Part shown: positions 2,549 to 44,015 of the stretch, one piece after another
Layout: every line of letters starts with the position of its first letter
Position numbering within the stretch: the stretch's first letter is position 1
Source of the DNA: an uncultured delta proteobacterium
GTDB lineage: Bacteria > Desulfobacterota > RBG-13-43-22
Reading direction: 5' to 3'
Length of the DNA stretch: 64,000 nt
Assembly: GCA_963790475.1 (NCBI GenBank)
Contig: CAWBOS010000010.1
Span: 1,824,001-1,888,000, forward strand
Position numbers and translations under genes: made by a program
The notes under the pieces: model-generated
Databases searched by the model: none
The model's input: the letters and a program-made list of their open reading frames with translations, nothing else
What the model was told of the DNA's origin: nothing

Positions 2549-3441
2549 AAAATAGGCGGGAGCAATAAAAGCTGGGCCGAAGGCCAGGGGAGTTGGAGGG
2601 ATTCCTTGATCTCTCCCATCCATTCACTAAAGATAAGGTCCCAAACCGAAAAACGTTTCTTTTCCTGAAAAATCAATTTAACCTCGCCTCTAAGACCCAC
2701 CATTTTTTTGGTCAGTTCAACCGCGTCTTCGAAGCTACCCAATTCATCCACCAATCCCAGGTCCCTGGCCTGTTCCCCGGTGAAGATTCGTCCATCGGCA
2801 AGCTTCTCCACCTTTTCCCGATTTAAACGGCGTCCCTTAACAACAACCTCTACAAATTGTTGATGGACATTTTTAATCACTTCTTCCAAAAGGCGGCGTT
2901 CTTCTGGTTTCATTTCCCTTACCGGCGAGCCGATATCTTTAAAAGGACCGCTTTTAACCACCTCCCGGCTGACCCCGATTTTATGAAGGAGGTCTTTAAT
3001 GTTGGACAACTCCATGATCACACCGATACTGCCGGTCAGAGTCGCCGGATTGGCCACAATCTTATTAGCCGCCAAAGCCACATAATAACCTCCGGAAGCA
3101 GCCACATTTCCCATGGAGGCCACCACTTTTTTCTTGAGAACGGTTCGTTGGACCTCCCGGTAAATTTCCTGGGAGGCGGCGGTTCCTCCTCCAGGGGATT
3201 CAATCCGAAGGATAATCGCCTTGACCCGGCTGTCTTTCCGATATTTCTTTAGTTGTTCCACCACCTCTCTGGAGTCGGTTATGACCCCCCGTAGGGAAAC
3301 GACGGCGATACGATTACCAAAACTTATGTCAAAATCCCTTTTAAGAAAGAGGGTTATTCCCCCCCAAAGGAGAACCAAGCCGCAGGCCACCAGACCGTAA
3401 ATAAATAATCCAAACAGGACAGGGTGTTTTTTTTCAGACAT
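2536..3441 (-). CDS. sppA: Signal peptide peptidase SppA (36K type)
   Basis: LRIESPGG, AASGGYY, GSIGVI, DGRIFTG. Confidence 0.93.
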   Translation of the reverse strand: MSEKKHPVLFGLFIYGLVACGLVLLWGGITLFLKRDFDISFGNRIAVVSLRGVITDSREVVEQLKKYRKDSRVKAIILRIESPGGGTAASQEIYREVQRTVLKKKVVASMGNVAASGGYYVALAANKIVANPATLTGSIGVIMELSNIKDLLHKIGVSREVVKSGPFKDIGSPVREMKPEERRLLEEVIKNVHQQFVEVVVKGRRLNREKVEKLADGRIFTGEQARDLGLVDELGSFEDAVELTKKMVGLRGEVKLIFQEKKRFSVWDLIFSEWMGEIKESLQLPWPSAQLLLLPPIFYKN

Positions 3442-5380: not shown

Positions 5381-5567
5381 TAACCTTTTATCCCCCTAAA
5401 CTTCCTTTTTTCTCTTCAAGAACCGGGAGTTTATCGATATTATTTCTTCCCCGTCCTTGCCTCTGTTCAGCGGCTACGGTAATTTACGCAAGCTTATCAA
5501 AAATATTCATAAAAATCAAGTTTAATTGATTATCCCTTCCCGTCAATTTTTTAGGCAACATCGCGGT

Positions 5568-6272
5568 TCAGCGAGACCGGAAATCATCGGCAGAAGTGTT
5601 TGTATCCTTGAAAATTCGGGAATGAATGGATCGGACAACCTCTTCGATCGACAAATGAGAAGTATCCACCACCCAGGCCCCCGGGGCAGGACGTAGTGGG
5701 GCCAAGGTCCTTTCCTGATCCTGACGGTCACGAGCTTCCATCTCCTTTTCCACCTCTTTCAGGGTAACGGACTGCCCTTTCTGGATCAGTTCTTCGAATC
5801 TTCTTCTGGCTCTTACCTCCAAGGAAGCATTCAAAAAAAATTTAAATCCGGCCTGAGGGAAAATAACTGTACCCATATCCCTTCCTTCGGCGATTAGGCC
5901 CCCCTGCCGGCCGAGAGCCTTTTGTCTTTCAGCCAAAAAGGAACGAACTTCAGGTTTCATAGATATTGCGGAAGCCAATCGGCTGATTTCCGGGGTTCGA
6001 ATTTCCTGACCGACATCGCTACCTTGAACCCAGACCCTCTGCCCCGGCCCGTTCCCTTCAATGACAAATTCTAAATCCTTTAAGAAAAGGGTAAGGGCCT
6101 TTCCAGCTAAATCTTCTTTTTTTTGTTTTCTTAGTATCCAGGCAACTACCCGGTACATGGCCCCGGTATCCAGACAATCCAATCCCAATTGCTCGCCTAA
6201 AAGCCGGGCGATGGTGCTTTTACCCGCCCCTGCTGGACCGTCAATAGTGATGATGATATTCGGTTTGGCCAT
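5568..6272 (-). CDS. cmk: Cytidylate kinase
   Basis: ITIDGPAGAGKST, DTGAMYR, EGRDMGT; ATG at 6272; adjacent to rpsA. Confidence 0.95.
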   Translation of the reverse strand: MAKPNIIITIDGPAGAGKSTIARLLGEQLGLDCLDTGAMYRVVAWILRKQKKEDLAGKALTLFLKDLEFVIEGNGPGQRVWVQGSDVGQEIRTPEISRLASAISMKPEVRSFLAERQKALGRQGGLIAEGRDMGTVIFPQAGFKFFLNASLEVRARRRFEELIQKGQSVTLKEVEKEMEARDRQDQERTLAPLRPAPGAWVVDTSHLSIEEVVRSIHSRIFKDTNTSADDFRSR

Positions 6273-6449
6273 TAAGGTTGATCTCGAAAAAGTCAAATTC
6301 GATGAGGATATTTGTGAAATTTTGAAATCGGGGATTGCTTCCTTATTTAACGCCAAATGATCGCGTGGAAAAGCCGGACTTAAGGAGCGTTTCACTTTAG
6401 ACAAAAGGCGACGGCCCCTGGCTATCCTTGTTTGAGGCGGCTTTTTTAT

Positions 6450-7536
6450 TTAAGGAGCTAGCACCTGTTTCAAGGCCCGTAAAAACCGCTGGTTTTCTTC
6501 GGGGAAGCCCGATATTGACTCGGATATAATAATCCAGGCCGTAACTTTTCATAGAACGGATAATAATCCCCTTTTTCAGCAGGGCTTCATAGACCACCTG
6601 TGCCTTCAGGGGAACCTTTATCAAAATAAAATTGGCCTGGGAAGGCACGTAGGAAAGACCCATTCTGGTCAACCCCTTTTCAATCGTTTTCTTTCCGGCG
6701 CGAACCAGAGTGCGGGTCTTTTCATAGAAAGCCTGGTCTTTCAAGGCCCCCAGGGCGGCGGCCTGGGCCAGAGAGTTCACATTAAAGGGTTGCCGAACCC
6801 GATTAACGTAATCGGTCAGCTCCGGCTGGGCCAGTCCATAGCCGATACGAAGCCCAGCCAACCCATAGGCCTTGGAAAAAGTTCGAAAAACTATAAGGTT
6901 TTTTCCAGAATCGATGTAATGCAGTCCACTTGGGCAATCCTTATCTTCCACAAAGTCAATGTAGGCCTCGTCCAGAAGTATCAGAATCCGGTCAGGAACA
7001 CTTCTTAAAAACCATTCCCATTCTTTCTTTCTGATGGTGGTGCCGGTGGGATTGTTAGGGTTGTTGATAATGATGATTTGAGTTCGTGGGCCGATCCGGG
7101 ATAGAATCGCTTCCAGATCAATCCTAAATCTTTTGAGCGGTACCAGGATACTTTTTCCGCCCAGGGCCTGAACCGCCTTTTCATAAACCAGGAAAGAGGG
7201 AACGGGAGATATTACCTCAAAACCCGGTTTCATAAAGGTCTTCAAGGCCAATTCGATTATCTCGTTGGATCCATTACCTAACAAGATTTGATCCGCTGAT
7301 AGGCCCAGAAGCTGGCTGAGCGCTTGTTTTAAATAGTAACCGCTTCCATCGGGATAGCGATGAATCTGGGGCAGGACGCGTCGTATGGCCTTCAAGGCCA
7401 GAGGGGAAGGACCCAATGGATTCTCGTTGGAGGCCAGCTTGATTACTTGTTTAATCCCATATTCCCGGGTTAATTCTTCGATGGGTTTTCCTGGAGGATA
7501 GGGGACCAGATCAAGGATTGATTTTTTTATTTTCAT
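6450..7536 (-). CDS. hisC: Histidinol-phosphate aminotransferase (one apparent frameshift near 6505; corrected end GLPEENQRFLRALKQVLAP*)
   Basis: KLASNENP, NPNNPTG, DEAY, RTFSKAYGLAGLRIG. Confidence 0.92.
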
Positions 7537-7729
7537 GTTTTTCCTTATTTATTAACCAGTTCTTACATCACCGCTCATTAAAAATCAATAGCTTTTCTTG
7601 AAAAAAGGAATCATTTTTTGGAATTGGACCTGCTAAAAGTTCTTGCCTTTTCATGAAAAACAGGTAGAATTAACTCCTAATTTTTATTAAGATCTAATCT
7701 TGAAATCAATTAAAGAAAGGGAATCGAAG

Positions 7730-8005
7730 ATGAACAAGTCCCAGTTGATTGAAGCCTTAGCCAAAGATCAGGACCTGACCATCAAGAACGCCGAATTAGT
7801 CGTGACCCATTTTTTTGAGAGTATTGAGGAGGCCCTGGCTAAAGGAACAAGGGTAGAGATCCGTGGCTTTGGTAGTTTTAAGGTTAAAAATTATCAAGGC
7901 TACAAAGGTAGAAACCCAAAAACCGGGTCCATCATCAATGTCTCCAGAAAAAGACTCCCCTTTTTCAAAGTGGGGAAGGAATTAAAAGAACGAGTTGACG
8001 TTTAG
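7730..8005 (+). CDS. ihfB: Integration host factor beta / HU-family DNA-binding protein
   Basis: MNKSQLI, RVEIRGFGSF, GRNPKTG, PFFKVGKELKERV. Confidence 0.85.
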   Translation: MNKSQLIEALAKDQDLTIKNAELVVTHFFESIEEALAKGTRVEIRGFGSFKVKNYQGYKGRNPKTGSIINVSRKRLPFFKVGKELKERVDV

Positions 8006-11870: not shown

Positions 11871-13831
11871 ATGAAAAATAACAAAAAGAGGCGCATTATC
11901 TATCTGGGGGGAGTTCTGCTTTTCTTTTTTGGCCTGGGAGAAAATCCATCTTCTCTCTGGGCGAAAGAAGGAAAGATCACTCCCAAAGCCCGATTAATCC
12001 AAATAGAGGATCAGGTGTTGCCGGATCGATTACGGGTCATACTGAAAATCAACCGCCCGGTGGTCTACCGATCTTCCACAATGACCAGTCCCCCTCGGCT
12101 GGTCGTCAATTTAAGCCCTTGTATTTTAGGCTCTCAAAAACCCATTACCGTGAAGGATTCTTCTCTGGCAGGGGTACGTTATTCCCAGTTCAATCCCAAA
12201 ACCGTTCGAATTGTTTTCGACTTCTTCCAAACCCCGGTCTATCAGATTTCCCATAAACAAGGAACGCCTTATCAAATTATCGTGGACTTTCCTAAAGCCA
12301 AACCTGAAACAATTTCACCCGTCCCCCACAAGACCGGAGATGGATTCTTACCGAAAACAACCATTGAAGAATTTAAAAAAGAAAAAAGTTTCCAAGATAA
12401 TCTATTGAAGAAAGAAAAGGTTCTTTCCAAAAAACCATTGGTCACCTTTGATTTTTATATGACCAATCTCCACAATGTGCTGCGTCTAATCGGTGAAGTC
12501 GGCGGGGTAAATATCGTGGTTGGGGATGAGGTGAAAGAAAAAAAAATGACTTTGAGTTTAAAAGAAGTCCCCTGGGACGAGGCCCTGAATACAATATTGG
12601 AGGGTAACAATCTGAGAAAACTGCAGCGTGGTGAAAAAACCTTTTTAGTCACTACCAGTGAAAACTATAAAAAAATATTGGATGATGAAAACAAGTCGAA
12701 ACTCGATGCCATCAAACTGGAACAGGAAGAATTGAAGGCCGAGGAACAACGCCGGAAAGTCGGAAAAGTTCTCTGGAGTACGAGACAATTCCAGATCAAA
12801 AATGTGGATGTGAAGTTGGTTGAGGATTTAATTCAAGGTTCCATAGAAAAAGAAAAAAAGATCACGGAGGATAGACTGCCGGGAAGCGACAAAGACAGAG
12901 CGACACTGCCGGGATCGGAAAAATTCTTGGGGGCTGATGTGCGTATCATAAGTGTCCCACACACCAACACCTTGATCGCCAAGGGAACCGAACGGGATTT
13001 GGATTATTATTGAATCACTAATAAAAACAATCGACCAACCTATTTCTCAGGTCATGATCGAGGCCCGCATCGTCGAGGCCGATGCCAATTTTACACGGGA
13101 TATGGGGATTCGATGGGGAGGGGCGAGCTTCCTTCGCTGATGCCCACGCACCTTTCGCCGGGACTATTCGAGGTGGAGACGCCTCCGGAGGCGGGCCGGC
13201 GCCAAGTAATTATGCCGTCAATTTGCCGCTAAACGCCGCTTCTTCGGCTTTTGGAGGCTTGGGGTTCGCCTTTGCCTCAACCAATTTAAACATCGATGTT
13301 CGAATCCAGGCCATGGAACAACAAGGCCGGGGGAAAACCATTTCTTCTCCCAAAATATTAACCAAAGATAATACAGAAGCCATAATTAAACAGGGAGCAG
13401 AGATTCCAGTAACAACTCAATCAGTAGTAGGTGGCGTTGTTTCGTTTACCACTGAATATAAAGATGCTGTCTTGGAACTTAAGGTTACCCCCCATATTTC
13501 TAGTAGTAAAAATATTCGAATCAATGTAAATATTTCAAAAAATGAGCCGACTTCACCAACGTAGATAAATTTGGAAATCCAACCATTAACACTAAAGGCG
13601 GCTTCAACGGAAATGATGGTCAAGGATGGCAATACGGTGGTCATTGGAGGGATTATCTTCAAAAAAGAAACGCTTATAGATAACAAGGTGCCCGGCCTGG
13701 GAGATATTCCCGTTTTGGGCTGGCTCTTTAAAACAAAGTACCGAACGACAGCAGATACCGAACTGCTTATTTTTCTCACTCCCAAAATAATTAGACCATC
13801 ACTCTCCGAGCGGTTTGGAAGTGATAGTTAA
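11871..13831 (+). CDS. pilQ: Type IV pilus secretin PilQ with AMIN domain; about 4 single-base frameshifts (near 13007, 13120, 13548, 13597)
   Basis: VPWDEAL; frame-corrected QVMIEARIVEA; ISSPKILT; LELKVTPHI; frame-corrected FTNVDKFGNPTINTK; VPGLGDIPVLGWLFK; ELLIFLTPKI. Confidence 0.9.
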
Positions 13832-28145: not shown

Positions 28146-29202
28146 ATGGTGAATACAGTCGCTATCGCCTTAAGCGGGGGAATTGACAGCGCCCTTTCCG
28201 CCTATCTCTTAAAAAAGGAAGGCCACCGGGTCATAGGTCTCCATGCCGACTTCGGATTTTCCCCGGAACCCGCCCTCCCCTGGCTGGAAAAAATAACCGC
28301 CTTCTTGAAGATCCCCCTGGAAGTTATTTCCCTAAAAGAGATTTTTCAAAAAAGGGTAGTGGATTATTTTATCTCCGAATATGCCCTGGGACGGACCCCC
28401 AATCCTTGTGTGGTCTGCAATCCCCTTGTCAAGTTTGATCTGCTGTACCAGAAAGGATTGAGCCTAGGGGCCGACTTTTTTGCCACCGGGCATTATGCCC
28501 GAATTGTCCAAGCCCCCTGGGGGGAGGGATTGCTCATTGCCAGAGGACTGGACAACACTAAGGATCAATCCTATTTTTTACACAGAGTTAGGCAGTCAAA
28601 ACCTTAAGCGAATTCTATTCCCTTTGGGCCCCTGGACTAAAAACCACGTTCGGGGCATGGCCCGGGAAATCGGTCTTCCGGTGAACCCCAAAGGGGAAAG
28701 TCAGGATATCTGTTTCCTGCCCAAGGGAGGCTACCGGGAGTTTCTGCTTAAACATATCCCTTCCAAACTTATCCGGTCCGGGGAAATTGTGGACATCCAG
28801 GGAAGAAAGCTGGGGACCCATCAAGGACTGTTCGCTTATACCATCGGACAAAGAAGAGGACTGGGTTTGCCGGCAGCAGAACCCTATTATGTAATCCGTC
28901 TGGAACCTGATCTCAACCGATTGGTCATTGGCGGAAAGAAGGATTTGGAATCTTCGGGTTGTCTCCTTTCCGATGTCTATTTCATATCCCGCCCTCCTGA
29001 AATCGACGGCTTGGAGATCATGGTCCAGGTCCGATATCGGCACAAAGCGGCTAAGGCCCGATTACACGTCGGAGAAGGTCAGGGGCTGGAGATCCATTTT
29101 CAAAATCCGCAAAATGCGGTTACTCCAGGTCAGGCCGCGGTCATCTATTGGGAGGATAAAGTTCTGGGAGGGGGCTGGATTGAAACCACCTGGAAAGAGT
29201 AA
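28146..29202 (+). CDS. mnmA: tRNA 2-thiouridylase MnmA (apparent frameshift near 28597)
   Basis: SGGIDS, TPNPCVVCN, ATGHYA, KDQSYFL | ESQDICF, YTIGQRRGL, AVTPGQ. Confidence 0.92.
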
Positions 29203-33615: not shown

Positions 33616-34847
33616 TTAGGATGGATTTTTCATCCCTTCCTCTTTTTCAGCCCGCCAACCCAAAAAAAATACCACCGCTCCCAAAAGAGGGAAAATTCCC
33701 AGCCAGCCAAAAAGAGTACGGGCCGAAACGTTAAAAGAATTGACTAATAAATACACGGCTGCAATAGCCGTCAGTCCGAAAATGCGGCTGCCGAAACTGG
33801 TGGTGGATTTGGCCCTCCCCTGAATGTGGGCATCGGAATAACGATTGATGATGGAATCAATCCCCACCGCCTCGGAGGCCTGGCCGGCCCCCACCATGGC
33901 CCCCACCAGGCAGGCCAGGATTACGTCATTAACCAGGTTGAACCCGAAAAAGGACAACCCGATGACGATCAGGGACACCCCGGTGAGGAAAAAGGTGGAA
34001 CGATAGGCAAAAAAGAAGGGGATCACCAGGGCGGTAACCACGACCTTGCCGGCCGATTGGGCCGATTCGAAATAACCGTAGGCCGACAGACCTTTGGCGA
34101 TATGGGCCAAATAGACCACGGAAAGGACGGAAAAAGAACCGCGGGCCATCGCCACCAGGGATCGACCGATCAATAACAACCGCAAAGGCTTGTTAGCCCA
34201 GGTGTACCGCAGACCCTCTCTTTGACTGGCCCAATAGGACTTTTTGCGGACTTTTTGATAATCGATGACCGATTCCCCGGCCAGGTGAAGCCGGGAGACC
34301 AGAAAGAAAGAAATAAAGAAAAAAAACGGTCCCCATAAGACCGCTATTTTAAACCCCAGCCAGCCGGCCACCAGACTGGCCAGCGCATAACCCGCTGATA
34401 TTGCTGAAATGGTTGGCCGCATCAATCTGGGATAAAACCTTGGTCCCTTCCTTGAACCGGGAAATTGACTTTAACCACCTTGTCCGCCGCTGGCTTAAAA
34501 AAAATAAAGACAAAATCACCTAAAAAAGATAAAACCAGATAAACCGGGTAGGGATATCCCCACAGCACCGCCGCCACCAGGAGCAGGCTTAAAAATGTCC
34601 GCAGCAGATCAGCGGCCATCAGTGAGGTGCGAATGCGCATTTTGTCAATAAAAGGGCCGGATATGGCATTGATGAGGATTTCACAGACATAACGGAAAAC
34701 CAGGACCAGACCGGCGATCATGGGGTCCTTGCTTTTTGAGGCCACCAGCAGAACTGACAGAATGCGTAAGAAGCCGTCCCCGATCCGGGTGAACACCCGG
34801 CTGGAAATCAGAATGATAAAATCTTTCCGGACAGTGGAGGGTTCCAT
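33616..34847 (-). CDS. MFS transporter (apparent frameshift near 34445)
   Basis: About 12 hydrophobic segments across two ORFs; SGPFIDKMRIR, FFKPA, EGLRY, QGRA motifs. Confidence 0.8.
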
Positions 34848-34863
34848 GGGCACTTGTCGATAA

Positions 34864-34939
34864 TGTATAACAAACCCCGAACCGGGAGTCAATACGATAT
34901 ATACGGAAGTTTGACTTTAACAAATCCTGGGCGTATAAT
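34864..34939. promoter_or_regulatory. Back-to-back sigma70-type promoters for the MFS-kinase operon and the cyclase gene
   Basis: Plus strand TTGACT(34911)-N17-TATAAT; minus strand TTGACT(34892)-N17-TATACA. Confidence 0.55.
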
Positions 34940-34967: not shown

Positions 34968-36602
34968 ATGGCCTATCAACTACTGATCACGCCTTCCGTC
35001 GGTAAGCGCTGGACTTACGTCCTGGAAAAAACCTTGGTGAAGATCGGACGGACCAACCACTGCGAGGTGGTCATCAACGATCAATTGGTTTCCCGGGAAC
35101 ATTGCCAGTTGCAGTTGAAGTCCGAGGGACTTTTTTTAGAGGATTTAAACAGCGTTAACGGGACCCTGGTCAACAATCAGCGCATCACCCGGGTCTTGCT
35201 GCATCCCGGAGATAAGATTCGTCTGGGGCTTTCAGATATTCTTTTGGAGGGGTACCAGGAGAAGGAAACTGCCCCGTCTACCCAATTCACCAAGCCCAAA
35301 GAACCCCGGCCGGAGCCGGCGAAAAAACCTGAACCTGGGATTTCAATAGAAAAAAAACCTGAACGCATCCGAGAACCTGCCCCGCTGCAGCCGAAAAGAT
35401 CCGAAATGGGGCAGCCCGACGAATTAAAAAAACCCAGGAAACCCGAGGCTGCTGTTCCCCGAGGTCCTGAGCCCGCTCCTATCCCCTTGGTTTCCAAAAA
35501 CCAGGAACCACCAACCCTCTTGGTCGTCCATCCGGAATGCTCGCAGATTGAACACCTGCTGGCCCCCCTGGCGGCTTCCGGGGTGGTGATCCAACGGACG
35601 TCGGATAGCCGTCAAATCCACTCCATCTTAGAAAAATCCCCGCCGGACTGCATTCTGCTCGGCATTCAAACGGAAGCCACCCTGAATGTCTGCCAGGAAA
35701 TAAAGTCCCGCCCGAACGCTGGTCCAATTGTGTTGTTGATTCAAGAAGAATCCTGGCAGGACCTGTACCCCCTGATCCAAGCCGGGGTGGACGAGGTGCT
35801 TCGCCAACCGGACCCCACTGAATTGCAAGTTCGTCTCCGGAATATGCTGGAACTGCACCGCTTACGAAAGGAAGCTACCTCCTTAAACTCTCAAATGGAA
35901 AAGCGGGTCAGTGCGGATGTATCCGAAGCCGAACGCATCACCCGGCTGAAAAGGTATCTTTCTCCACAGGTAGTGGCCGCGGTCTTATCCGGGGATGAAT
36001 CCCACGTCCTCAAGCCTACCCGTCAGGAGGTGTCCATCGTCTTTTCCGACCTTCGAAACTTTACCCATTTCTCGGAGACCTCTGAACCGGAAGAAATTAT
36101 GGCCATGCTGGGTGACTTCCATGGCCTTTATGGTGAGATTATTTTTCAATATGACGGGACTCTGGAGCGTTTCGCCGGAGACGGGGTCATGGTCTTTTTT
36201 GGGGCCCCGGTCCGTTTTAAAGATCATGCCTCCCGGGCAGTGGCCATGGCCGTGGCCGCCCGGGAACGATTGGTCGACCTGCGCAAGAAATGGAAGAAAT
36301 TAGGCTATGCCCTGGATATTTCATTCGGGATTTCAACCGGATATGTTTTTGTGGGCAATATCGGGTTCGAGGGACGGATGGACTACGCCGCCATTGGGAA
36401 GACCACCAACCTGGCTGCCCGGTTGTGCGCCGCGGCCAAGGGGGGTGAAATTCTGATAAGCCGCAAGACCCTTTTTCAGGTGGAGGACCTGGTGGAGGTG
36501 GAAGAGACCGGAGCCTTGGAAGTGAAAGGCTTCAGCGAACCGGTTATGGCCTATAATGTGCTTCGCCTTAAAGCCCCCTTCACCCCTACCCCTGTTGACT
36601 AA
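34968..36602 (+). CDS. FHA + Pro-rich linker + pseudo-receiver + class III adenylate/guanylate cyclase
   Basis: IGR/SREH/NGT FHA motifs; DCILLGI receiver-like segment without Asp; FSDLRNFT, FAGDG, DY, NLAARL, VKG. Confidence 0.88.
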   Translation: MAYQLLITPSVGKRWTYVLEKTLVKIGRTNHCEVVINDQLVSREHCQLQLKSEGLFLEDLNSVNGTLVNNQRITRVLLHPGDKIRLGLSDILLEGYQEKETAPSTQFTKPKEPRPEPAKKPEPGISIEKKPERIREPAPLQPKRSEMGQPDELKKPRKPEAAVPRGPEPAPIPLVSKNQEPPTLLVVHPECSQIEHLLAPLAASGVVIQRTSDSRQIHSILEKSPPDCILLGIQTEATLNVCQEIKSRPNAGPIVLLIQEESWQDLYPLIQAGVDEVLRQPDPTELQVRLRNMLELHRLRKEATSLNSQMEKRVSADVSEAERITRLKRYLSPQVVAAVLSGDESHVLKPTRQEVSIVFSDLRNFTHFSETSEPEEIMAMLGDFHGLYGEIIFQYDGTLERFAGDGVMVFFGAPVRFKDHASRAVAMAVAARERLVDLRKKWKKLGYALDISFGISTGYVFVGNIGFEGRMDYAAIGKTTNLAARLCAAAKGGEILISRKTLFQVEDLVEVEETGALEVKGFSEPVMAYNVLRLKAPFTPTPVD

Positions 36603-36779
36603 AAAAACCTGACTCTGTTTATCATGCCCCCCATATGGGTCAACCCTGACCGGATGGTCCCTTCGATCAATCCGACGATATCTTCTCTTCTGATTATAAG
36701 AAAACTGCTTGGAATTTTTTTTAAGATCAGGTAATCTATTTTGGGGTCGGATCAATGCATCTCAATAAGGAGGCCCAAA

Positions 36780-37043
36780 TTGAAAAAAGTTACAATCATA
36801 ACCCTAATGTTTATTTTTTTTCTATGTTCAGCCTTTTCTTTTTGTTACGCAACGAGCGATCAAACTCCCGGGAATTCTCTAAAGGGAACTCAGATTGCCG
36901 ACAAGAAGGAGAGACATGAAAAAATTGAAGAGTTGCAAGAAAAGATCAAGCAGTTGAAAGAGGATAAGGAGAAGATAGAAAAAGAAATTCAAGAAAACGA
37001 AAAGGAATTGAGGGAACTTAGACATCATCATCACAAATCCTAA
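36780..37043 (+). CDS. Small exported coiled-coil protein ending in HHHHKS
   Basis: AGGAGG RBS, TTG start, hydrophobic signal, K/E-rich heptads. Confidence 0.6.
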   Translation: MKKVTIITLMFIFFLCSAFSFCYATSDQTPGNSLKGTQIADKKERHEKIEELQEKIKQLKEDKEKIEKEIQENEKELRELRHHHHKS

Positions 37044-37191
37044 GGTTAATTTTCCAAAAGCCGACCCCTTAAACAGGTTGTAAGACCCCAAAATATCCGG
37101 AAACGGTTTTATGTTGGGGGCGTTATCTATATAGACTTTTCCTGCACCGTCATTTATTTTTATTTTGGAGTATTCAGAATAAAATTTACCT

Positions 37192-38705
37192 ATGGCCAAA
37201 CCCATCCCTGTTGATCAAGAAGACATCGGGCTCCATTCTTTCCTGAAGGCCGTTGGGCCTTTTCGAGGTTTATCCGACCGGGAAATCAGCTCGCTGGCCG
37301 CCTTGGCCAAGCGACTGGAATATAGGTGCCGGTGAGTACATCTTTCAGGCCGGAGATCTGGGGGATGCCCTATTCATCATTGAAGAAGGCCTTTGCAGTC
37401 TGGAGATTGCCGGAAGGACGGTCAAACGCCTGAATCCCGGAGACCTCTTTGGTGAGATTGCCGTCATTGATACCCTGCCCCGAACGGCCTCAGTCAGGGC
37501 CGCCCAGACCTGTAGGCTCCTCTGTTTTCAAGCCGGAGATCTGGAAAATGAAAAGAAAATTAATCCATCCAGTTATATTAAAATCCTGAAGGCCTTAGCC
37601 CGTCAGATCACCTCTTATGTCCGTTCCGGGGATGATCTCTACCAGGAGATGGACTGCCTGCTGGTCCAGGACGGTGGTTGTGCTCCGGGATATGACAGCG
37701 TCACCGGTTTCCTGACCTATTTTCTGGAAGAAGCCGGACATCAGGTCTTTATGGCCCGGGAGGGTTTCAAATCCCTGGTCAGCGGCCAGGCCGGGGACTT
37801 TTGCTGTCTGATCAATGACCAGGACCTTTACCAGAAGATGGAAAACCTGCACCTGCCCGGGGTTATTTACACTCCGCCTCTGCGCGAAGCCCGAGGGGCC
37901 AGTTTCCGGACCGAACGCTACCCGGAATTTCTGAAGCCGGAAAATCAAAAATTGGCCTGCCCAAAATCTGATTGCCCGGCGGATTCGTATCTTGATCGGA
38001 ATAGGGGGCAATGGGACCTTCAGCGGCCTCAAGGCCTTAAGTCTGCTCCTGCCGGCTTCCGTCAAGGTTTTTTTTATCCCGGTCACCATTGACAGTGATA
38101 TTTTCGGTACTGAATGTATCGGCGAACATACCGGCGTCCAGGTGGGTTCGGAAAAGATCCTCTCCTATCTGGCCGATGCCCGTACCCACCACCGGATCTA
38201 TATTATCGAGATGATGGGGGCGGAAGGAGGTTATCATGCCCTTCATTCCTGTCTGGGGGCCGGTGCCGATCTGGCGGTCCTGCCCTCTTCCCGTTATGAT
38301 CCCAGCCAGGTGGCCGAAGCCCTCAATCACAAAGTATCGGCGGTTATTGTTGTCGCTGAGGGTTATAAAAGGGAAGAACGTAAAAAGGCCGGATATAAAG
38401 GGAATGCCGCTGAATACTTCCGCGATGAGTTGCAAAAAGCCGGTCTGCGAACCCGGCGACGGGTCGTTTGTGAGGGTTTTTCCAGGGATATCCGGGGGGC
38501 GGCCCCCAACTACCGGGATATTACCCTGTCGCAAAGAATGGCCCGTCAATTGACCCGTCTGCTTCAGGAAGGGAAGAACCAGGTGATGCCGGCGATCCTG
38601 GCCGGGCAGGAATATGCCATCCCCTTTGAGGAAATCCGCACCGATAATTCCGTTGAATCCGGTCTGGCCGACCTATCCAATCGTCTGACAAATAAAGATG
38701 AGTGA
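37192..38705 (+). CDS. cNMP-binding domain fused to a divergent PfkA-family phosphofructokinase (apparent frameshifts near 37323 and 37970)
   Basis: MAKPIP...FRGLSDREI | FGEIAVIDTLPRTASV; DGGCAPG; IGGNGT; PVTIDSDI; IIEMMG; VVAEG. Confidence 0.75.
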
Positions 38706-38829
38706 TAAGGCCTAACCCCATTCATGCTACCGCTGGTTTTCAGGTGATTAGACCAGGACCTCCCGTCCCTCCGGTTCATAAGGATGGATTGGTCCGGGGG
38801 AACATTTGATTTGAGAAAGGCTGATATAC

Positions 38830-39642
38830 ATGAAAAAAAGAATTTTACTCATTCCTTGGTTTTTATTACTGAACCTCTTTTTATGGTCCTCCTCGGTCTG
38901 GGCGGTCCCCTTATCTTTGGATCAAAACATCAAAGCCATTTTGGCCAAGCAGGAAGGTTCAGGTCAAGGGTTTGATTTTGTGGTCATCGGTGATAACCGG
39001 GATGGAGCGGAAGTATATAATCGATTATTAAATCATGCCAAGGCCTTTAAGCCTTTTTTTATCCTCAACACGGGGGATTTTGTCCGGGAAGGACAGGTCT
39101 TTGAATATGAAAATTATATAAAGCAGATCGCTCCGTTTGATATCCCCATCCTGCATCTCCCGGGAAACCATGACGTCCGTTATGGATCGGAAACCTATCG
39201 TAAATACGTAGGGGAGCTTAATTGGGTATTTGACCTGAGTGGTTTTCGCATTATCGGCCTTGATAATGCCACGGGAAAATTCACCGAGGAGACAGTGGCC
39301 TTCGCCCGGGAAAACCTGACCAGCCAAAAACCCTGCCTGGTGGCCTTCCATATACCCCCGGCCATCGGGCGGTGGACTGTGCATGCCATGATCGATGACC
39401 AAAAGGGAGGGCATGGCGGCGAGGTGATGGATTTAATCAAAGGAGCTAAAGTGCCCATGGTTTTTATGGGACATATTCATCTCTATGACGAAATGGACAT
39501 CGCCGGCACTAAATATGTTATCAGCGCCGGGGGAGGGGCAAGGCTTTACGGTAAATATAATTTCGGAAAACCGGAGTTCGGTTTTGTCCTGGTCCGGGTA
39601 AGACCCACGGGGATTACCCATCAATGGGTACCCCTGGATTAA
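38830..39642 (+). CDS. Exported calcineurin-like metallophosphoesterase
   Basis: Signal peptide; GDNR, TGDFV, GNHD, FH, GHIH. Confidence 0.88.
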   Translation: MKKRILLIPWFLLLNLFLWSSSVWAVPLSLDQNIKAILAKQEGSGQGFDFVVIGDNRDGAEVYNRLLNHAKAFKPFFILNTGDFVREGQVFEYENYIKQIAPFDIPILHLPGNHDVRYGSETYRKYVGELNWVFDLSGFRIIGLDNATGKFTEETVAFARENLTSQKPCLVAFHIPPAIGRWTVHAMIDDQKGGHGGEVMDLIKGAKVPMVFMGHIHLYDEMDIAGTKYVISAGGGARLYGKYNFGKPEFGFVLVRVRPTGITHQWVPLD

Positions 39643-39663: not shown

Positions 39664-40198
39664 TTATTTGGGAATACTTATCTTCCGGGTAAATATCCAA
39701 TTGTCCGCCAAAAGATGACAGCCGTTACAATTGGCAAAGGACCCTATTGATTTCTTTTGAAAAACATCGGAAGATATTTTTCGGTGCTTTTTCAGGATGT
39801 AAGGAATCTCGGTAATGCGTAAGGGGCATATTGCTTCCGAGGCTTTCCATTATTTTCTGTGGTATTTTAGAGTTGGAACTTTCAGCCCCGTTCTCTTTAA
39901 GATAAAGGGCGATAAGGTTTTTAGTTTTTTGGTCTATCTCCAGAGTTCCTCCGAAATGTTTTTCCGTCGAACCTAACAGCTTTTCCCAGGAACCGGAAGG
40001 TAAAAATTCGGGCGGATAGGGCATATGGCATTGTCCGCATGTCTTCTTATAAGTCGAGGCCGGATCAATCCCAGAACTCAGCGCTTCTTTTGTCCCATTT
40101 GGACTGACCTGATTTCCGGTTGCACTTAAACAGGCCGAACTACCCATTAACACAGCCAGGAACAACAGCACAAAAAATGATTTTTCAGGAATGGTCAT
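39664..40198 (-). CDS. Diheme cytochrome c (DHC family; apparent frameshift near 39822)
   Basis: CGQCHMPYPPEFLP...HFG; frame-corrected RITEIPY..KH..ANCNGCH...SIPK*. Confidence 0.8.
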
Positions 40199-40349: not shown

Positions 40350-40378
40350 TTGACCCCTCGCCGGGCTTCTTTTATACT
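40350..40378 (+). promoter_or_regulatory. Sigma70-type promoter, copy 1 of a triplicated motif
   Basis: TTGACC-CCTCGCCGGGCTTCTTT-TATACT. Confidence 0.6.
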
Positions 40379-40544
40379 CTTTTCATCAAAAAAACATCGA
40401 AGTCCGGGGTCAGTCCTTTCCGCAGTAGACAGGACATTCCTTGTCCCGAATCCGTTGCCTGATCGGGGATTCGGCAACATACCGGACTTTACCCGGACAG
40501 GGGGCGGGGGAAAAGTCCGTCTAAACCCATACCTAATAACGACC

Positions 40545-41315
40545 ATGAAAAATAGAAAAATCAACATTGATTTGCTTTTCCTCGGCTCGGGCAATGCCTT
40601 CGCCCCAGGACGGGCCTATGGAAGTTTCCTGGTAGATGAGCGGATTCTTTTCGAAGCCACCCCTACCACTTTACCGGCCCTCAAGGAACTAAACATACCT
40701 CTGGAGGATATCCAGTACATCTTCATCAGCCATTTTCACGGCGATCATTGCTTCGGACTGCCCTTTATCTTCCTCGATCATTATTTTATCACCAAGCGAA
40801 AAAAGCCCTTGACGATCATCGGCCCGAAAGGCCTTAAGAAACTCTCTTATACCCTCATAGACCTGGCCTTCCCCGACACCCGGAAGCGTTATTCCCGGAA
40901 ATTTCCGTTGAAAATTTTAGAGGTAAGCCCCGGCAAAGAATACTCCCTCAAGACAATGACTTTCAAGGTTTTTAAAATGTCTCATGGAAAGACATACAAC
41001 CTGGGGTTCAGTCTGACTTATAAGAAAAAACGGCTGTTCTATTCCGGCGACACGGGGCCAAGTCCTTCCCTGTTGGAACTCCTACAGGGCGCGAATATCG
41101 TTGTTTTAGAAATGACCTCCATTGACGACGATTACCCCTTCCATCTCAACCAGGAAAATATTTTGGAAATCAGAAAGCAGCTCCCACCTGAGACCCGATT
41201 GATCCTCACCCACCTCCCGGCCTTTACCAGGAAACAGGCGAAGGCCCTGGAACAGAATCCTTATGGAGTCCTTCTACCGGCCGAGGATAGGCGGCGCTAT
41301 AAATTCAATCTGTAA
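40545..41315 (+). CDS. Metallo-beta-lactamase-fold hydrolase (RNase Z/ElaC-like phosphodiesterase)
   Basis: FLGSGNAF, ISHFHGDH, SH, YSGDT, LTH. Confidence 0.85.
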   Translation: MKNRKINIDLLFLGSGNAFAPGRAYGSFLVDERILFEATPTTLPALKELNIPLEDIQYIFISHFHGDHCFGLPFIFLDHYFITKRKKPLTIIGPKGLKKLSYTLIDLAFPDTRKRYSRKFPLKILEVSPGKEYSLKTMTFKVFKMSHGKTYNLGFSLTYKKKRLFYSGDTGPSPSLLELLQGANIVVLEMTSIDDDYPFHLNQENILEIRKQLPPETRLILTHLPAFTRKQAKALEQNPYGVLLPAEDRRRYKFNL

Positions 41316-41501: not shown

Positions 41502-44015
41502 ATGGAACAAAATCCTAATTACCCCAGCCCCACTGGCCAATCCGAACCCGAGGACATCCGTTCCGGGCTCCGCCCGGAGACAATTGCCAAGGCCTTTAAT
41601 GATAATCTGGCCTATCTCTGCGCCCGGTTTCCTGAAGTGGCTACCCGTAACGACCGATACCTGGCCCTGGCCTACACCGTCCGCGACCGCCTTTTACACC
41701 GCTGGACCAACACCGCCCGTACTTACTATCAAATGCGCAGCCGATCGGTGTGTTACCTCTCGGCCGAATTTTTGATGGGACCCCAATTGGGCAACAATCT
41801 GATCAACCTGGGCATTTTTGACCAAGTACGGGAAGCCATGCAGCAATTAGGTCTGGATCTGGACGACTTGCTGGAGCAGGAGGAGGAACCCGGGTTGGGC
41901 AACGGCGGTCTGGGCCGTCTGGCGGCCTGCTATCTGGATTCCCTGGCGACTCAGCAGATCCCTGCCATCGGTTACGGCATCCGTTATGAATTCGGTATTT
42001 TCGACCAGGCCCTTCGGGACGGCTGGCAGGTGGAACTTACCGACAAATGGCTGCGTCTGGGAAATCCCTGGGAAATCGCCCGGCCGGAAATCGTCTTTGA
42101 TGTCCAACTGGGCGGTCACACCGAGACCTATTTTGAAGACGGCCGGCAGCGTGTTCGCTGGATTCCCGATCGCGTCGTCCGGGGAATGGCCTATGACACG
42201 CCCGTGCTCGGCTACGGCGGAAACACCGTGAATCTGCTGCGCCTGTGGAAAGCCGAGGCAGCAGAGTCCTTCGACTTTCAGGCCTTCAACACCGGGGATT
42301 ATTACGGGGCGGTCATGGAAAAAGTGACCTCGGAGAACATCACCAAGGTATTGTACCCCAATGATGAAACGATTCAGGGCAAACAACTCCGTCTCCAACA
42401 GCAATACTTTTTCGCCTCCTGCGCCATGCAGGATATGATCCGCATGTTTCTTCAACAGTCCGGTTCCCTGGACCATTTGCACGAGAAATTCGTGGTGCAA
42501 CTCAACGATACGCACCCCGCCATCGCCGTGGCCGAACTCATGCGCCTATTGGTCGACGAGCATACCCTGCCCTGGGATCAGGCCTGGCAGATCACCCAGA
42601 ACACCTTCGGTTACACCAATCATACCTTGTTGCCTGAAGCGCTGGAGCGCTGGCCCATCCCTCTCTTTGCCGGTTTGCTGCCGCGCCACCTTGAAATCAT
42701 CTTTGAAATCAACCAGCGATTTTTGGACGAAATCCGGCTCCGCTATCCCAATGACGACGCCCGGGTCGCCCGCATGTCGCTCATCGACGAACAAGGACCG
42801 CGTTATGTGCGCATGGCCAACCTGGCCTGCGTAGGCAGCCAGAACATCAACGGAGTAGCCAAGCTACACACGGACCTGCTCAAATCCGGTGTTCTGCACG
42901 ACTTTGTAGACTTTTCACCGGAAAAATTCACCAATGTAACCAACGGCGTTACTCCCAGGCGTTTTCTGCTGCTCAGCAACCCCGGTCTTGCCGGGCTTAT
43001 CACCCGCCGAATCGGAAACCAGTGGATCAAAAACCTCGACGAACTCCAGCGTCTTGAGGGGGCCGTAGAGGACCCCGCCTTTCGAAGAGAATGGAGGGAA
43101 ATCAAACTCCGGAACAAACAGGTCCTGGCCGCTCTGTTCTTGCGCCTTGCCGGCCTGACCGTCAATCCCGACACCCTGTTCGACATCCAAGCCAAACGGA
43201 TCCACGAATACAAACGGCAACACCTGAACCTCCTGCACATCGTTACCCTCTATAACCGGTTACGTCAGAAACCGGAGGTCGACTTTGTTCCGCGCACCTT
43301 CATTTTCAGCGGCAAGGCCGCACCCGGCTACCACATGGCCAAGCTCATCATCAAATTGATCAATTCCGTGGCCGCCGTGGTCAATCAGGACCCGGTGACC
43401 GAAGGCCGATTGAAGGTCGCCTTCTTGCCGAACTTCAATGTCAAGAACGCGCAACGGGTTTATCCGGCGGCCGACCTTTCCGAGCAGATATCCACCGCCG
43501 GGATGGAGGCCTCCGGCACCGGCAACATGAAGTTTTCCATGAATGGGGCCCTCACCATCGGTACTCTGGATGGTGCGAATATCGAAATCCGCAACGAGGT
43601 AGGCCCTGAAAACTTCTTCCTCTTCGGCTTGACCGCCGACCAGGTGCAGGCAGTTAAATCTCTTGGTTACCATCCCCGCGGCTATTATGAGGCGGATCCT
43701 GAACTTAAGGAGGCACTCGACCTGATCGCCTCCGGACACTTTTCCCCCGAAAATCCGGATTTGTTCCTTCCGCTGGTGAATACCCTCCTGAGCCAAGACG
43801 AATACATGGTCCTGGCCGATTACCGGTCTTACCTCGACTGCCAGGAAAAGGTTGCCCAAGCCTATCAGGACCGGGAGAACTGGACGCGCATGTCCATCCT
43901 CAATGTTGCCCGCATGGGATTCTTTTCCTCTGACCGGTCCATCCGGGAATATTGCCAGCGTATCTGGAAGACCTCACCGGTTTCCATAAAACTGGGGGAC
44001 TCAAAAACCGGTTGA
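41502..44015 (+). CDS. glgP: Glycogen/alpha-glucan phosphorylase
   Basis: GLGNGGLGRLAAC, QLNDTHP, KRIHEYKRQ, EASGTGNMKF (PLP lysine). Confidence 0.96.
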   Translation: MEQNPNYPSPTGQSEPEDIRSGLRPETIAKAFNDNLAYLCARFPEVATRNDRYLALAYTVRDRLLHRWTNTARTYYQMRSRSVCYLSAEFLMGPQLGNNLINLGIFDQVREAMQQLGLDLDDLLEQEEEPGLGNGGLGRLAACYLDSLATQQIPAIGYGIRYEFGIFDQALRDGWQVELTDKWLRLGNPWEIARPEIVFDVQLGGHTETYFEDGRQRVRWIPDRVVRGMAYDTPVLGYGGNTVNLLRLWKAEAAESFDFQAFNTGDYYGAVMEKVTSENITKVLYPNDETIQGKQLRLQQQYFFASCAMQDMIRMFLQQSGSLDHLHEKFVVQLNDTHPAIAVAELMRLLVDEHTLPWDQAWQITQNTFGYTNHTLLPEALERWPIPLFAGLLPRHLEIIFEINQRFLDEIRLRYPNDDARVARMSLIDEQGPRYVRMANLACVGSQNINGVAKLHTDLLKSGVLHDFVDFSPEKFTNVTNGVTPRRFLLLSNPGLAGLITRRIGNQWIKNLDELQRLEGAVEDPAFRREWREIKLRNKQVLAALFLRLAGLTVNPDTLFDIQAKRIHEYKRQHLNLLHIVTLYNRLRQKPEVDFVPRTFIFSGKAAPGYHMAKLIIKLINSVAAVVNQDPVTEGRLKVAFLPNFNVKNAQRVYPAADLSEQISTAGMEASGTGNMKFSMNGALTIGTLDGANIEIRNEVGPENFFLFGLTADQVQAVKSLGYHPRGYYEADPELKEALDLIASGHFSPENPDLFLPLVNTLLSQDEYMVLADYRSYLDCQEKVAQAYQDRENWTRMSILNVARMGFFSSDRSIREYCQRIWKTSPVSIKLGDSKTG

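Follow-up and report, generated by a model that had tools for sequence, protein, structure and literature searches.

The window analyzed here is a 64,000-nucleotide stretch of DNA from an uncultured delta proteobacterium (GenBank assembly GCA_963790475.1, contig CAWBOS010000010.1, positions 1,824,001 to 1,888,000 of the forward strand), and coordinates below are counted from its first base. At 37192-38705 on the plus strand it carries a gene of ~503 codons, once two single extra bases are skipped, that joins a cyclic nucleotide (cNMP)-binding domain to a phosphofructokinase (PFK) module. The list of open reading frames (ORFs) and the raw sequence show that this fusion gene is made up of three plus-strand pieces in frames 1, 2, and 0. 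The frame 1 piece begins with an ATG at 37192 and, read without any shift, ends in the raw sequence at a TGA stop codon at 37333-37335. The middle piece is a 279-aa ORF (37253-38092, +), which is overlapped in another frame by the 237-aa ORF of the last piece (37992-38705, +).

Aligning the DNA to that of orthologs divides the gene into three segments separated by two +1 shifts. Segment 1 (37192-37326, frame 1) supplies the first 45 codons and the N-terminal helices of the cNMP-binding domain; its start Met is conserved in the orthologs, which have the N-terminus MAKP... in common. An extra T at 37327 (placement possible from 37324 to 37327) constitutes break 1, beyond which segment 2 (37328-37955, frame 2) encodes the remainder of the cNMP-binding domain, a long C-helix, a linker, and the N-terminal half of the PFK module, including a DGGCAPG motif (37670-37690) and the arginines of FRTER. 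Within this segment, an in-frame 6-nt tandem duplication of ACCTGC (37845-37850) adds His-Leu at a point that maps between two secondary-structure elements of the model of an ortholog. Break 2 is an extra C at 37956 (placement possible from 37956 to 37959), after which segment 3 (37957-38705, frame 0, stop codon at 38703-38705) encodes the last two thirds of the PFK module. In it lie the motifs GGNGT (38004-38018), TIDSD (38085-38099), and MMGA (38211-38222), the glutamate of VVAEGY, and the arginines of FSRDIRG. The four altered PFK motifs listed in an earlier note on this DNA (DGGCAPG, GGNGT, TIDSD, and MMGA) were all located in the window copy.

Pfam recognizes a cNMP-binding domain (PF00027) in residues 25-99 of the middle piece (37325-37549; E = 5.3e-17, 62 bits against a gathering cut-off of 27.5) and a PFK domain (PF00365) in the last piece (E = 5.4e-32, 111.7 bits against a cut-off of 30.9) covering profile positions 95-276 of 277. 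On the middle piece alone, Pfam returned the cNMP domain and no N-terminal half of PFK at E ≤ 0.01. In NCBIfam, the last piece best matches a subfamily model of ATP-dependent PFK, at a score well short of the cut-off. The earlier note had placed the junction between the two domains inside the uninterrupted ORF 37253-38092; relatives do align to residues 25-236 of that ORF at 80-88% identity, and the location also fits the Pfam start of the PFK domain at residue 155 in relatives. Frames, Pfam assignments, and intact orthologs likewise bear out the reconstruction of a single protein of ~500 aa after two single-base corrections, and we regard the architecture and family membership of the gene as practically certain. 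A promoter and terminator scan of 36500-38900 found nothing beyond what shuffled sequences give.

Intact orthologs and the two frame breaks

When 40 related genomes were searched with the 279-aa middle piece, strong matches turned up in four: G004 and G012, which belong to the same genus as the window's genome (88% and 86% identity), G016 from the same family (80%), and G026 from the same phylum (48%, PFK part only). These matches lie in open frames of 497-547 aa and cover query residues 25-236, the stretch between the two breaks. Uninterrupted orthologs of 500, 500, and 497 aa with the same motifs and 77-87% DNA identity are present in G004, G012, and G016, and alignment of these three to the window places the extra T, the extra C, and the ACCTGC duplication in the window only. 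Read in the frame of the orthologs, the window copy contains no stop codon, and its dN/dS against them is 0.083-0.119, compared with 0.096-0.128 among the intact orthologs themselves.

In parallel, contigs of four public metagenome runs (X1-X4) were aligned to window positions 37100-38800; runs X3-X20 gave small word shares, which were set aside as evidence of habitat. At break 1, all covering contigs (one from X1, two from X2, and one each from X3 and X4), which make up the entire depth there, have one base fewer than the window. The same is true at break 2 (one contig from X1, three from X2, and one from X3), which no X4 contig covers. Over break 2, the contig from X1 departs from the window at only 4 of 278 positions (98.6% identical) and has the 6-nt duplication, which does not occur in the contigs from X2, X3, and X4. 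A near-identical strain therefore has an intact frame at break 2.

We consider it likely that both breaks are assembly errors and not features of the gene, in part because the same assembly has frameshifted dnaE and mnmA. The sole DNA polymerase III alpha gene (dnaE) is split into overlapping frames on contig C13 (L115 1219-2424 and 2066-4750, +), the former holding the PHP domain and the latter the polymerase, finger, HhH, and OB domains; a frameshift in so essential a gene points to consensus indel errors in the assembly. The principal alternative, that the frameshifts are real and the strain's copy of a functional family gene has recently been inactivated, is in our judgment distinctly unlikely, although several observations favor it and weigh against a technical origin. 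Two independent +1 insertions occur in one gene, and neither extra base sits within a long homopolymer. Among the long essential genes of the assembly, rpoB (1386 aa), rpoC (1390 aa), and gyrA (824 aa) are open throughout, as are the class I synthetases ValRS, IleRS, and LeuRS (886, 963, and 831 aa). The near-identical X1 contig covers break 2 only, the X1 contig at break 1 being ~90% identical, and read sets could not be assigned with certainty to the source sample. The gene is also accessory and patchy, with strong matches in 4 of the 40 relatives and in 2 of the 13 other species of the genus (completeness of these metagenome-assembled genomes (MAGs), 66-100%). Against inactivation, selection on the window copy is not relaxed and no stop interrupts the orthologs' frame; the extra bases are missing from the covering contigs of all four runs, including the 98.6%-identical one that shares the 6-nt duplication; essential dnaE is broken alongside mnmA; and the neighboring genome G004 has different split genes, among them the ortholog of the upstream cyclase, so that each of the two assemblies has its own set of broken genes. 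It is extremely improbable that the breaks are programmed +1 recoding sites. Both shifts are indeed +1 and a GCC codon follows each extra base, but the extra base occurs in none of the three orthologs nor in any metagenome contig, in-frame TGCC is read normally elsewhere in the fusion gene, and unrelated single-base breaks are found in other genes of the assembly. On these grounds, a programmed +1 frameshift and the reading of TGCC as a quadruplet were both rejected.

The earlier note had also raised a decaying pseudogene in which real frameshifts are accompanied by motif changes private to this copy. That possibility is ruled out, since the motif changes are family-wide and occur in three intact orthologs. 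The window copy adds nothing beyond these orthologs. Given single-base indels even in essential genes, "pseudogenes" of this assembly should not be taken at face value.

Family extent, domain architectures, and phylogeny

A word-indexed search matched the G012 ortholog to at least 543 protein clusters at E ≤ 1e-20, a count made among 8000 candidates scored. All but one of the 120 clusters listed contain both PF00365 and PF00027 (119/120), the exception being a 407-aa entry with PF00365 only. Where they are named, the names are automatic ("6-phosphofructokinase" and, once, "cyclic nucleotide-binding domain-containing protein"), and a cluster look-up of seven outlying members also returned automatic names only. 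A look-up in the ESM Atlas returned a single cluster (72 members), which has these two domains as well. An exhaustive search of representatives with the middle piece was dominated by proteins with multiple cNMP domains, but also yielded single-stretch matches over both domains in proteins of 498-676 aa, together with PFK-only matches (~490-511 aa); Pfam assigned to those representatives either cNMP plus PFK or receiver plus PFK. With hundreds of database proteins combining PF00027 and PF00365, the fusion that the earlier note proposed is both real and conserved.

Relatives are encoded by 123 one-per-species GTDB genomes, and our locus statistics rest on the best 80 of these 123 stretches. By title, the MAGs that supplied the 80 loci are Thermodesulfobacteriota/delta proteobacteria, Calditrichota, Bacteroidota, Chlorobiales-type, Leptospiraceae, and Candidatus Xenobia. 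In 77 of the loci we could call an ORF containing the two signature motifs; L064, L078, and L103 were dropped. By Pfam, 42 of the 77 are cNMP plus PFK, 33 are receiver plus PFK, and two are short ORFs with PFK only. All 33 receiver forms derive from Desulfobacterales-type or "Deltaproteobacteria" MAGs.

For the phylogeny we combined 23 sensor-fused PFK modules with 10 canonical PFKs of the same genomes in a maximum-likelihood tree, obtained by a quick search with a midpoint root only; several canonical rows in it are flagged as long branches. The sensor-fused modules all fall on one side of a branch of length 4.15 with SH-aLRT support of 100, and the receiver forms make up a subgroup (support 96) nested among the cNMP forms. 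This topology suggests that the cNMP fusion arose first and that the receiver later took its place on the same chassis. Orthologs P0151 (from G012) and P0156 lie inside the sensor-fused clade, and the clade motifs GGCAPGY, GGNGT, PVTIDSD, and FSRDIRG are all present in the window copy.

Sensor domain, fold, and active site

The cNMP-binding domain of the window protein contains the phosphate-binding cassette FGE...PRTASV (37448-37495), in which the Gly, Glu, and Arg are conserved in 119, 113, and 120 of 120 family members, respectively. PF00027 scores in the orthologs range from 56 to 63 bits (cut-off 27.5). The sensor also weakly matches the NCBIfam model of Pat, a cNMP-regulated acetyltransferase (E = 1.9e-4 and, in a second scan, 2.3e-6). 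An aromatic-x-x-Met/Ile-Asp-Val-Leu-Leu segment precedes the first strand of the PFK module and is conserved in both the cNMP and the receiver forms.

Intact orthologs score 141-149 bits against PF00365 over profile positions 3-276 of 277. An AlphaFold2 model of the G012 ortholog, an intact protein and not the broken window copy, was obtained from a 31-sequence alignment with a pLDDT of 90.4 and a pTM of 0.83. It displays a long helix (residues 125-144) followed by a short helix and then the first PFK strand (residues 155-160). The best Foldseek matches in the PDB are bacterial ATP-PFKs (target-normalized TM scores of 0.84-0.89, 24-26% identity, E down to 4.6e-24), and a phmmer comparison of an ortholog with PfkA gives E = 1e-20. 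The catalytic module is thus predicted to adopt the PfkA fold.

To describe the active site, residues were numbered by HMMER alignment of an ortholog to Bacillus stearothermophilus PFK (3PFK) and tabulated over 117 full-length members alongside the canonical PFKs of the carrier genomes. In PfkA, Asp127 is the catalytic base, Asp103 a ligand of Mg-ATP, and Arg72 and Arg171 are the transition-state residues at the transferred phosphate. Arg162, Arg243, His249, and Arg252 form the site for the 6-phosphate of fructose 6-phosphate (F6P), and Met169 and Glu222 act with Arg162, Arg243, and Arg252 to hold the sugar and its 6-phosphate. The effector site for ADP and phosphoenolpyruvate (PEP) consists of Arg21, Arg25, and Arg154.

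Much of this machinery is retained. Gly11, Arg72, Gly104, Asp127, Asp129, Arg162, Arg252, and the Met169/Gly170 pair are kept in 117 of 117 members, Thr125 and Glu222 in 116, and position 243 is Arg in 83 and Lys in 33. TIDSD corresponds to Thr125-x-Asp127-x-Asp129, and the statement of the earlier note that its catalytic Asp is preserved extends to every member. Other positions have changed throughout the family. Asp12 is replaced by Cys and Asn128 by Ser in all 117, position 124 (canonically Gly) is Val in 116, and His249 is Phe in 114. Position 103 is Asn in 104 members, including the window copy (GGNGT), and Asp in the other 13, so Asp is tolerated there. Arg171 is lost in 111 of 117 (Ala in 109, among them the window copy) and kept in 6. 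Two new near-invariant arginines appear, one at the Tyr69 position, three residues before Arg72, and one at the Gln251 position, beside a two-residue insert near His249. At the effector site, Arg21 and Arg154 are Arg in 0 of 117 members, and Arg25 in 26.

Taken together, these patterns resemble those of a functional ATP-type site in which arginines have been swapped, with the classical allosteric site gone. The earlier note had entertained a changed phosphate donor, a suggestion for which we find no support: by the rule that tells ATP from pyrophosphate (PPi) as donor, Asp104 and Lys124 mark the use of PPi, and the invariant Gly104 and the Val at position 124 argue against PPi. A changed acceptor, by comparison, appears possible because Arg171 and His249 are lost.

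Proposed function and competing explanations

We lean, by a small measure, toward a reading in which the fusion protein is a signal-gated, ATP-type sugar-phosphate kinase whose fused sensor acts in place of metabolite allostery, with the frame breaks being technical. The window protein would then be a ~503-aa member of a widespread, uncharacterized clade of sensor-fused PfkA-family enzymes, in which the cNMP domain leads through the long C-helix and the short conserved linker into the first strand and the nucleotide-binding loop GGCAPG. It would phosphorylate F6P or a close sugar phosphate at the expense of ATP; the classical ADP/PEP effector site would have been lost and control passed to the sensor. 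Cyclic nucleotide from nearby or other cyclases would move the C-helix and so switch the catalytic module. About ten residues or fewer appear to join the hinge/lid helix to strand 1 and its GGCAPG loop, and the possible target is either nucleotide binding or the subunit interface that supplies Arg162 and Arg243. In the cell, such an enzyme would work under signal control alongside its housekeeping PFK paralogs. Two more PFK genes occur in the window's genome, one of the PPi type on contig C13 (GGDDT, KTMDLD), and five of five distant carrier genomes checked have at least one canonical PFK that outscores the fused one.

We infer the kinase activity, substrate, donor, direction, and route of regulation from sequence, the regulatory route from the domain order and the secondary structure of the model. 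That the protein is an active kinase controlled by its fused sensor seems probable; that F6P is its physiological acceptor is somewhat short of an even chance. Of the interpretation given in the earlier note, the fusion, the altered motifs, and the cNMP cassette are borne out, while the changed donor finds no support.

A number of observations speak against this reading of the protein. Arg171 is Ala in 109 of 117 members, His249 is Phe in 114, and Asp103 is Asn here, three positions that in PfkA matter for catalysis or for the binding of F6P. The intact ortholog P0151 stays below the cut-off of every curated NCBIfam PFK model, scoring 134.9 against 253 for NF002872, 109.5 against 371.35 for TIGR02482, and 103.2 against 430.55 for TIGR02483. 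In the literature searched we found no assay of any member, activity and regulation being deduced as described above. Clustering of the ORFs of the 80 loci produced no family-wide conserved neighbor (the best clusters are P5C reductase in 11 of 80 loci, FTHFS in 10, and UvrB in 7), and the links to cyclases and to the glycogen phosphorylase gene glgP are confined to a few lineages.

Two other explanations of the PFK module have to be weighed. The module could be a kinase with another acceptor or product, such as a different sugar phosphate or a regulatory bisphosphate, and not an F6P 1-kinase. We hold this to be rather unlikely, although the fixed pocket changes (Arg171 to Ala, His249 to Phe, Asn128 to Ser, Val at 124, and two new near-invariant arginines), the very long branch from canonical PFKs, the ordinary PFK or PFKs that always co-occur in the genomes checked, and scores below every curated NCBIfam PFK cut-off would all be in keeping with it. 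Met169, Glu222, Arg162, Arg243, and Arg252, which in PfkA hold the sugar and its 6-phosphate, are nevertheless kept together with the base Asp127, Arg171 persists in 6 and Asp103 in 13 of 117 members, which suggests the same basic chemistry, and the presence of glgP nearby in two lineages fits a glycolytic role. Less likely still is a pseudoenzyme devoid of catalysis, which would do no more than bind a sugar phosphate or nucleotide and act in signaling as a scaffold or regulator, much as the regulatory halves or subunits of eukaryotic PFKs do. The loss of Arg171 in 111 of 117 members, the Asn in 104 of 117 at the position of the Mg-ATP ligand, and the housekeeping PFKs alongside are what such a protein might show. 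Yet Asp127, Asp129, Thr125, Arg72, Gly104, Gly11, and Glu222 are near-invariant over 117 members from several phyla, as in a working site, Asn can also bind Mg, and dN/dS is about 0.1.

In a more far-reaching reading, the family would not consist of spare glycolytic PFKs but might constitute a distinct class of signal-gated sugar-phosphate kinase with swapped arginines (Arg171 lost along with His249, two new Arg gained) and a different product, such as a regulatory sugar bisphosphate or another sugar phosphate in phosphorylated form, switched on directly by cNMP in the one form and by a phosphorelay in the receiver form. We consider this unlikely. Were it true, the family would be a bacterial counterpart of hormone-controlled PFK-2-type signaling, with central carbon flux set post-translationally by cAMP/cGMP without CRP.

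Relation to known systems

The fused module shares its fold with the bacterial ATP-PFKs (PfkA; 3PFK/4PFK, 5XZ8, and 1PFK), as judged from the Foldseek scores of 0.84-0.89 and a PF00365 score above cut-off. It differs from them in its ~25% identity, in its position on a separate long branch and below the NCBIfam cut-offs, in the replacements Asp12 to Cys, Asp103 to Asn, Gly124 to Val, Asn128 to Ser, Arg171 to Ala, and His249 to Phe, in the loss of Arg21 and Arg154, and in the fused N-terminal sensor of ~150 aa. PPi-dependent PFKs belong to the same superfamily, but the Gly104 (117/117) and Val124 (116/117) of the window family are not the two residues that mark PPi use. The receiver (REC)-PFKs of Desulfobacterales-type MAGs have the same divergent PFK module, motifs, and linker and fall in the same clade, but carry an N-terminal two-component receiver where the window protein has a cNMP-binding domain.

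The mycobacterial cAMP-regulated acetyltransferase Pat is likewise an enzyme with an N-terminal cNMP-binding domain, and it is regulated by relief of autoinhibition. The likeness is one of logic only, as the catalytic domain of Pat is a GNAT acetyltransferase unrelated to PFK. The prevailing view is that cAMP acts in bacteria mainly at the level of transcription, by way of CRP, and few enzymes there are known to be switched directly by a cyclic nucleotide.

A trypanosomatid flagellar protein resembling phosphoglycerate kinase also joins a cNMP-binding domain to the fold of a glycolytic enzyme, according to a 2014 paper (PMC4106842). Pfam is said there to have listed at the time no fusions of cNMP domains with glycolytic enzymes (PMC4106842). 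The trypanosomatid protein differs from the window protein in being eukaryotic and in having a degenerate phosphoglycerate kinase as the partner, and its authors view it as degenerate (PMC4106842). Our own search found no description of a cNMP-PFK or receiver-PFK protein in the literature covered, which excludes subscription-only papers.

The conserved, multi-phylum family described here has a cNMP sensor or a receiver wired onto a PFK-type module that lacks the classical effector site, a natural case in which sensors are swapped on a common enzyme chassis. Provided that its members are active, a committed step of sugar-phosphate metabolism would come under direct, protein-level control by second messengers and phosphorelays. 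Behind the plain annotation "6-phosphofructokinase" there is probably another mode of regulation, and possibly another reaction as well.

Gene neighborhood

Two genes from the fusion gene, as the earlier note had observed, and upstream of it lies a class III cyclase gene (34968-36602, +) whose product combines FHA, receiver, and Guanylate_cyc domains by Pfam. This cyclase is a likely source of the cyclic nucleotide, and its ortholog also lies upstream of the fusion gene in G004. A single small ORF (36741-37043, +; 100 aa) separates the two in the ORF list and Pfam annotation. Its product is hydrophobic at the N-terminus and also has a run of His and a stretch rich in Lys and Glu that resembles a coiled coil. 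The ORF is 70% identical over 57 aa in the G012 locus; at its place, G004 has a much longer GAAGAAAAA-type repeat.

Directly downstream is a gene for a calcineurin-like metallophosphoesterase with an N-terminal hydrophobic leader (38830-39642, +), which is syntenic in G004 and G012. It is followed by genes for a dihaem cytochrome c (39725-40198, -) and a metallo-beta-lactamase-fold protein (40350-41315, +), the G004 ortholog of the latter appearing split. Beyond these two, 2.8 kb downstream of the fusion gene and at the same distance in G004, lies a glycogen phosphorylase gene (41502-44015, +), which we view as a weak contextual tie to sugar-phosphate metabolism. On a Calditrichales chromosome (L068), glgP (5466-7979, +) ends 22 bases before the start of the cNMP-PFK gene on the same strand.

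A CHASE2-type class III cyclase forms a neighbor cluster in six loci, five of them titled Chlorobiales-type and the sixth (L055) untitled. In L038, L042, L044, and L051 it lies directly upstream of the cNMP-PFK gene and divergent from it (about 5400-7785, -). This is a second, independent cyclase association, and cyclases therefore adjoin the fusion gene in two unrelated lineages. In locus L008, a receiver-type PFK gene sits between a DUF3334/CheX-like gene (2-586, -) and a hybrid histidine kinase gene (2680-3366, -). Pfam does not recognize the N-terminal domain of the L008 protein as a receiver, whereas it recognizes that of a close relative.

Other split genes in the assembly

The window was also compared with 69 kb of syntenic G004 DNA, with frame splits in tblastn used as the measure; in blastn, 156 of 214 indels are non-triplet, which is too noisy for an error rate. 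Seven G004 frames are split in the window, five of them at the gene level, the other two being an antisense shadow and a repeated-domain case. The G004 frames that map to the window over two or three frames include the fusion gene, MnmA, an MFS transporter, a PilQ-type secretin, and PilM, the last of these ambiguous and near its start. Conversely, several window frames are split in G004, where the cyclase ortholog (L028 5763-7396) falls into three or more ORF pieces, in contrast to the intact copy of the window.

The mnmA gene (tRNA 2-thiouridylase; 28149-29199, +) is split over two frames near 28595, and this broken copy is the sole strong tRNA_Me_trans match in the window's genome. The PilQ-type secretin gene (12720-13828, +) matches its G004 ortholog over three frames, and the MFS transporter gene (33616-34892, -) is split into ORFs of 156 and 269 aa. 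The contamination estimate of the window's genome is 9.68%. Besides the intact rpoC on contig C15, a second RNA polymerase beta-prime-like match (138.9 bits) occurs at 171005-171871 of contig C13 in an open frame of only 570 aa, and may represent contamination or a fragment.

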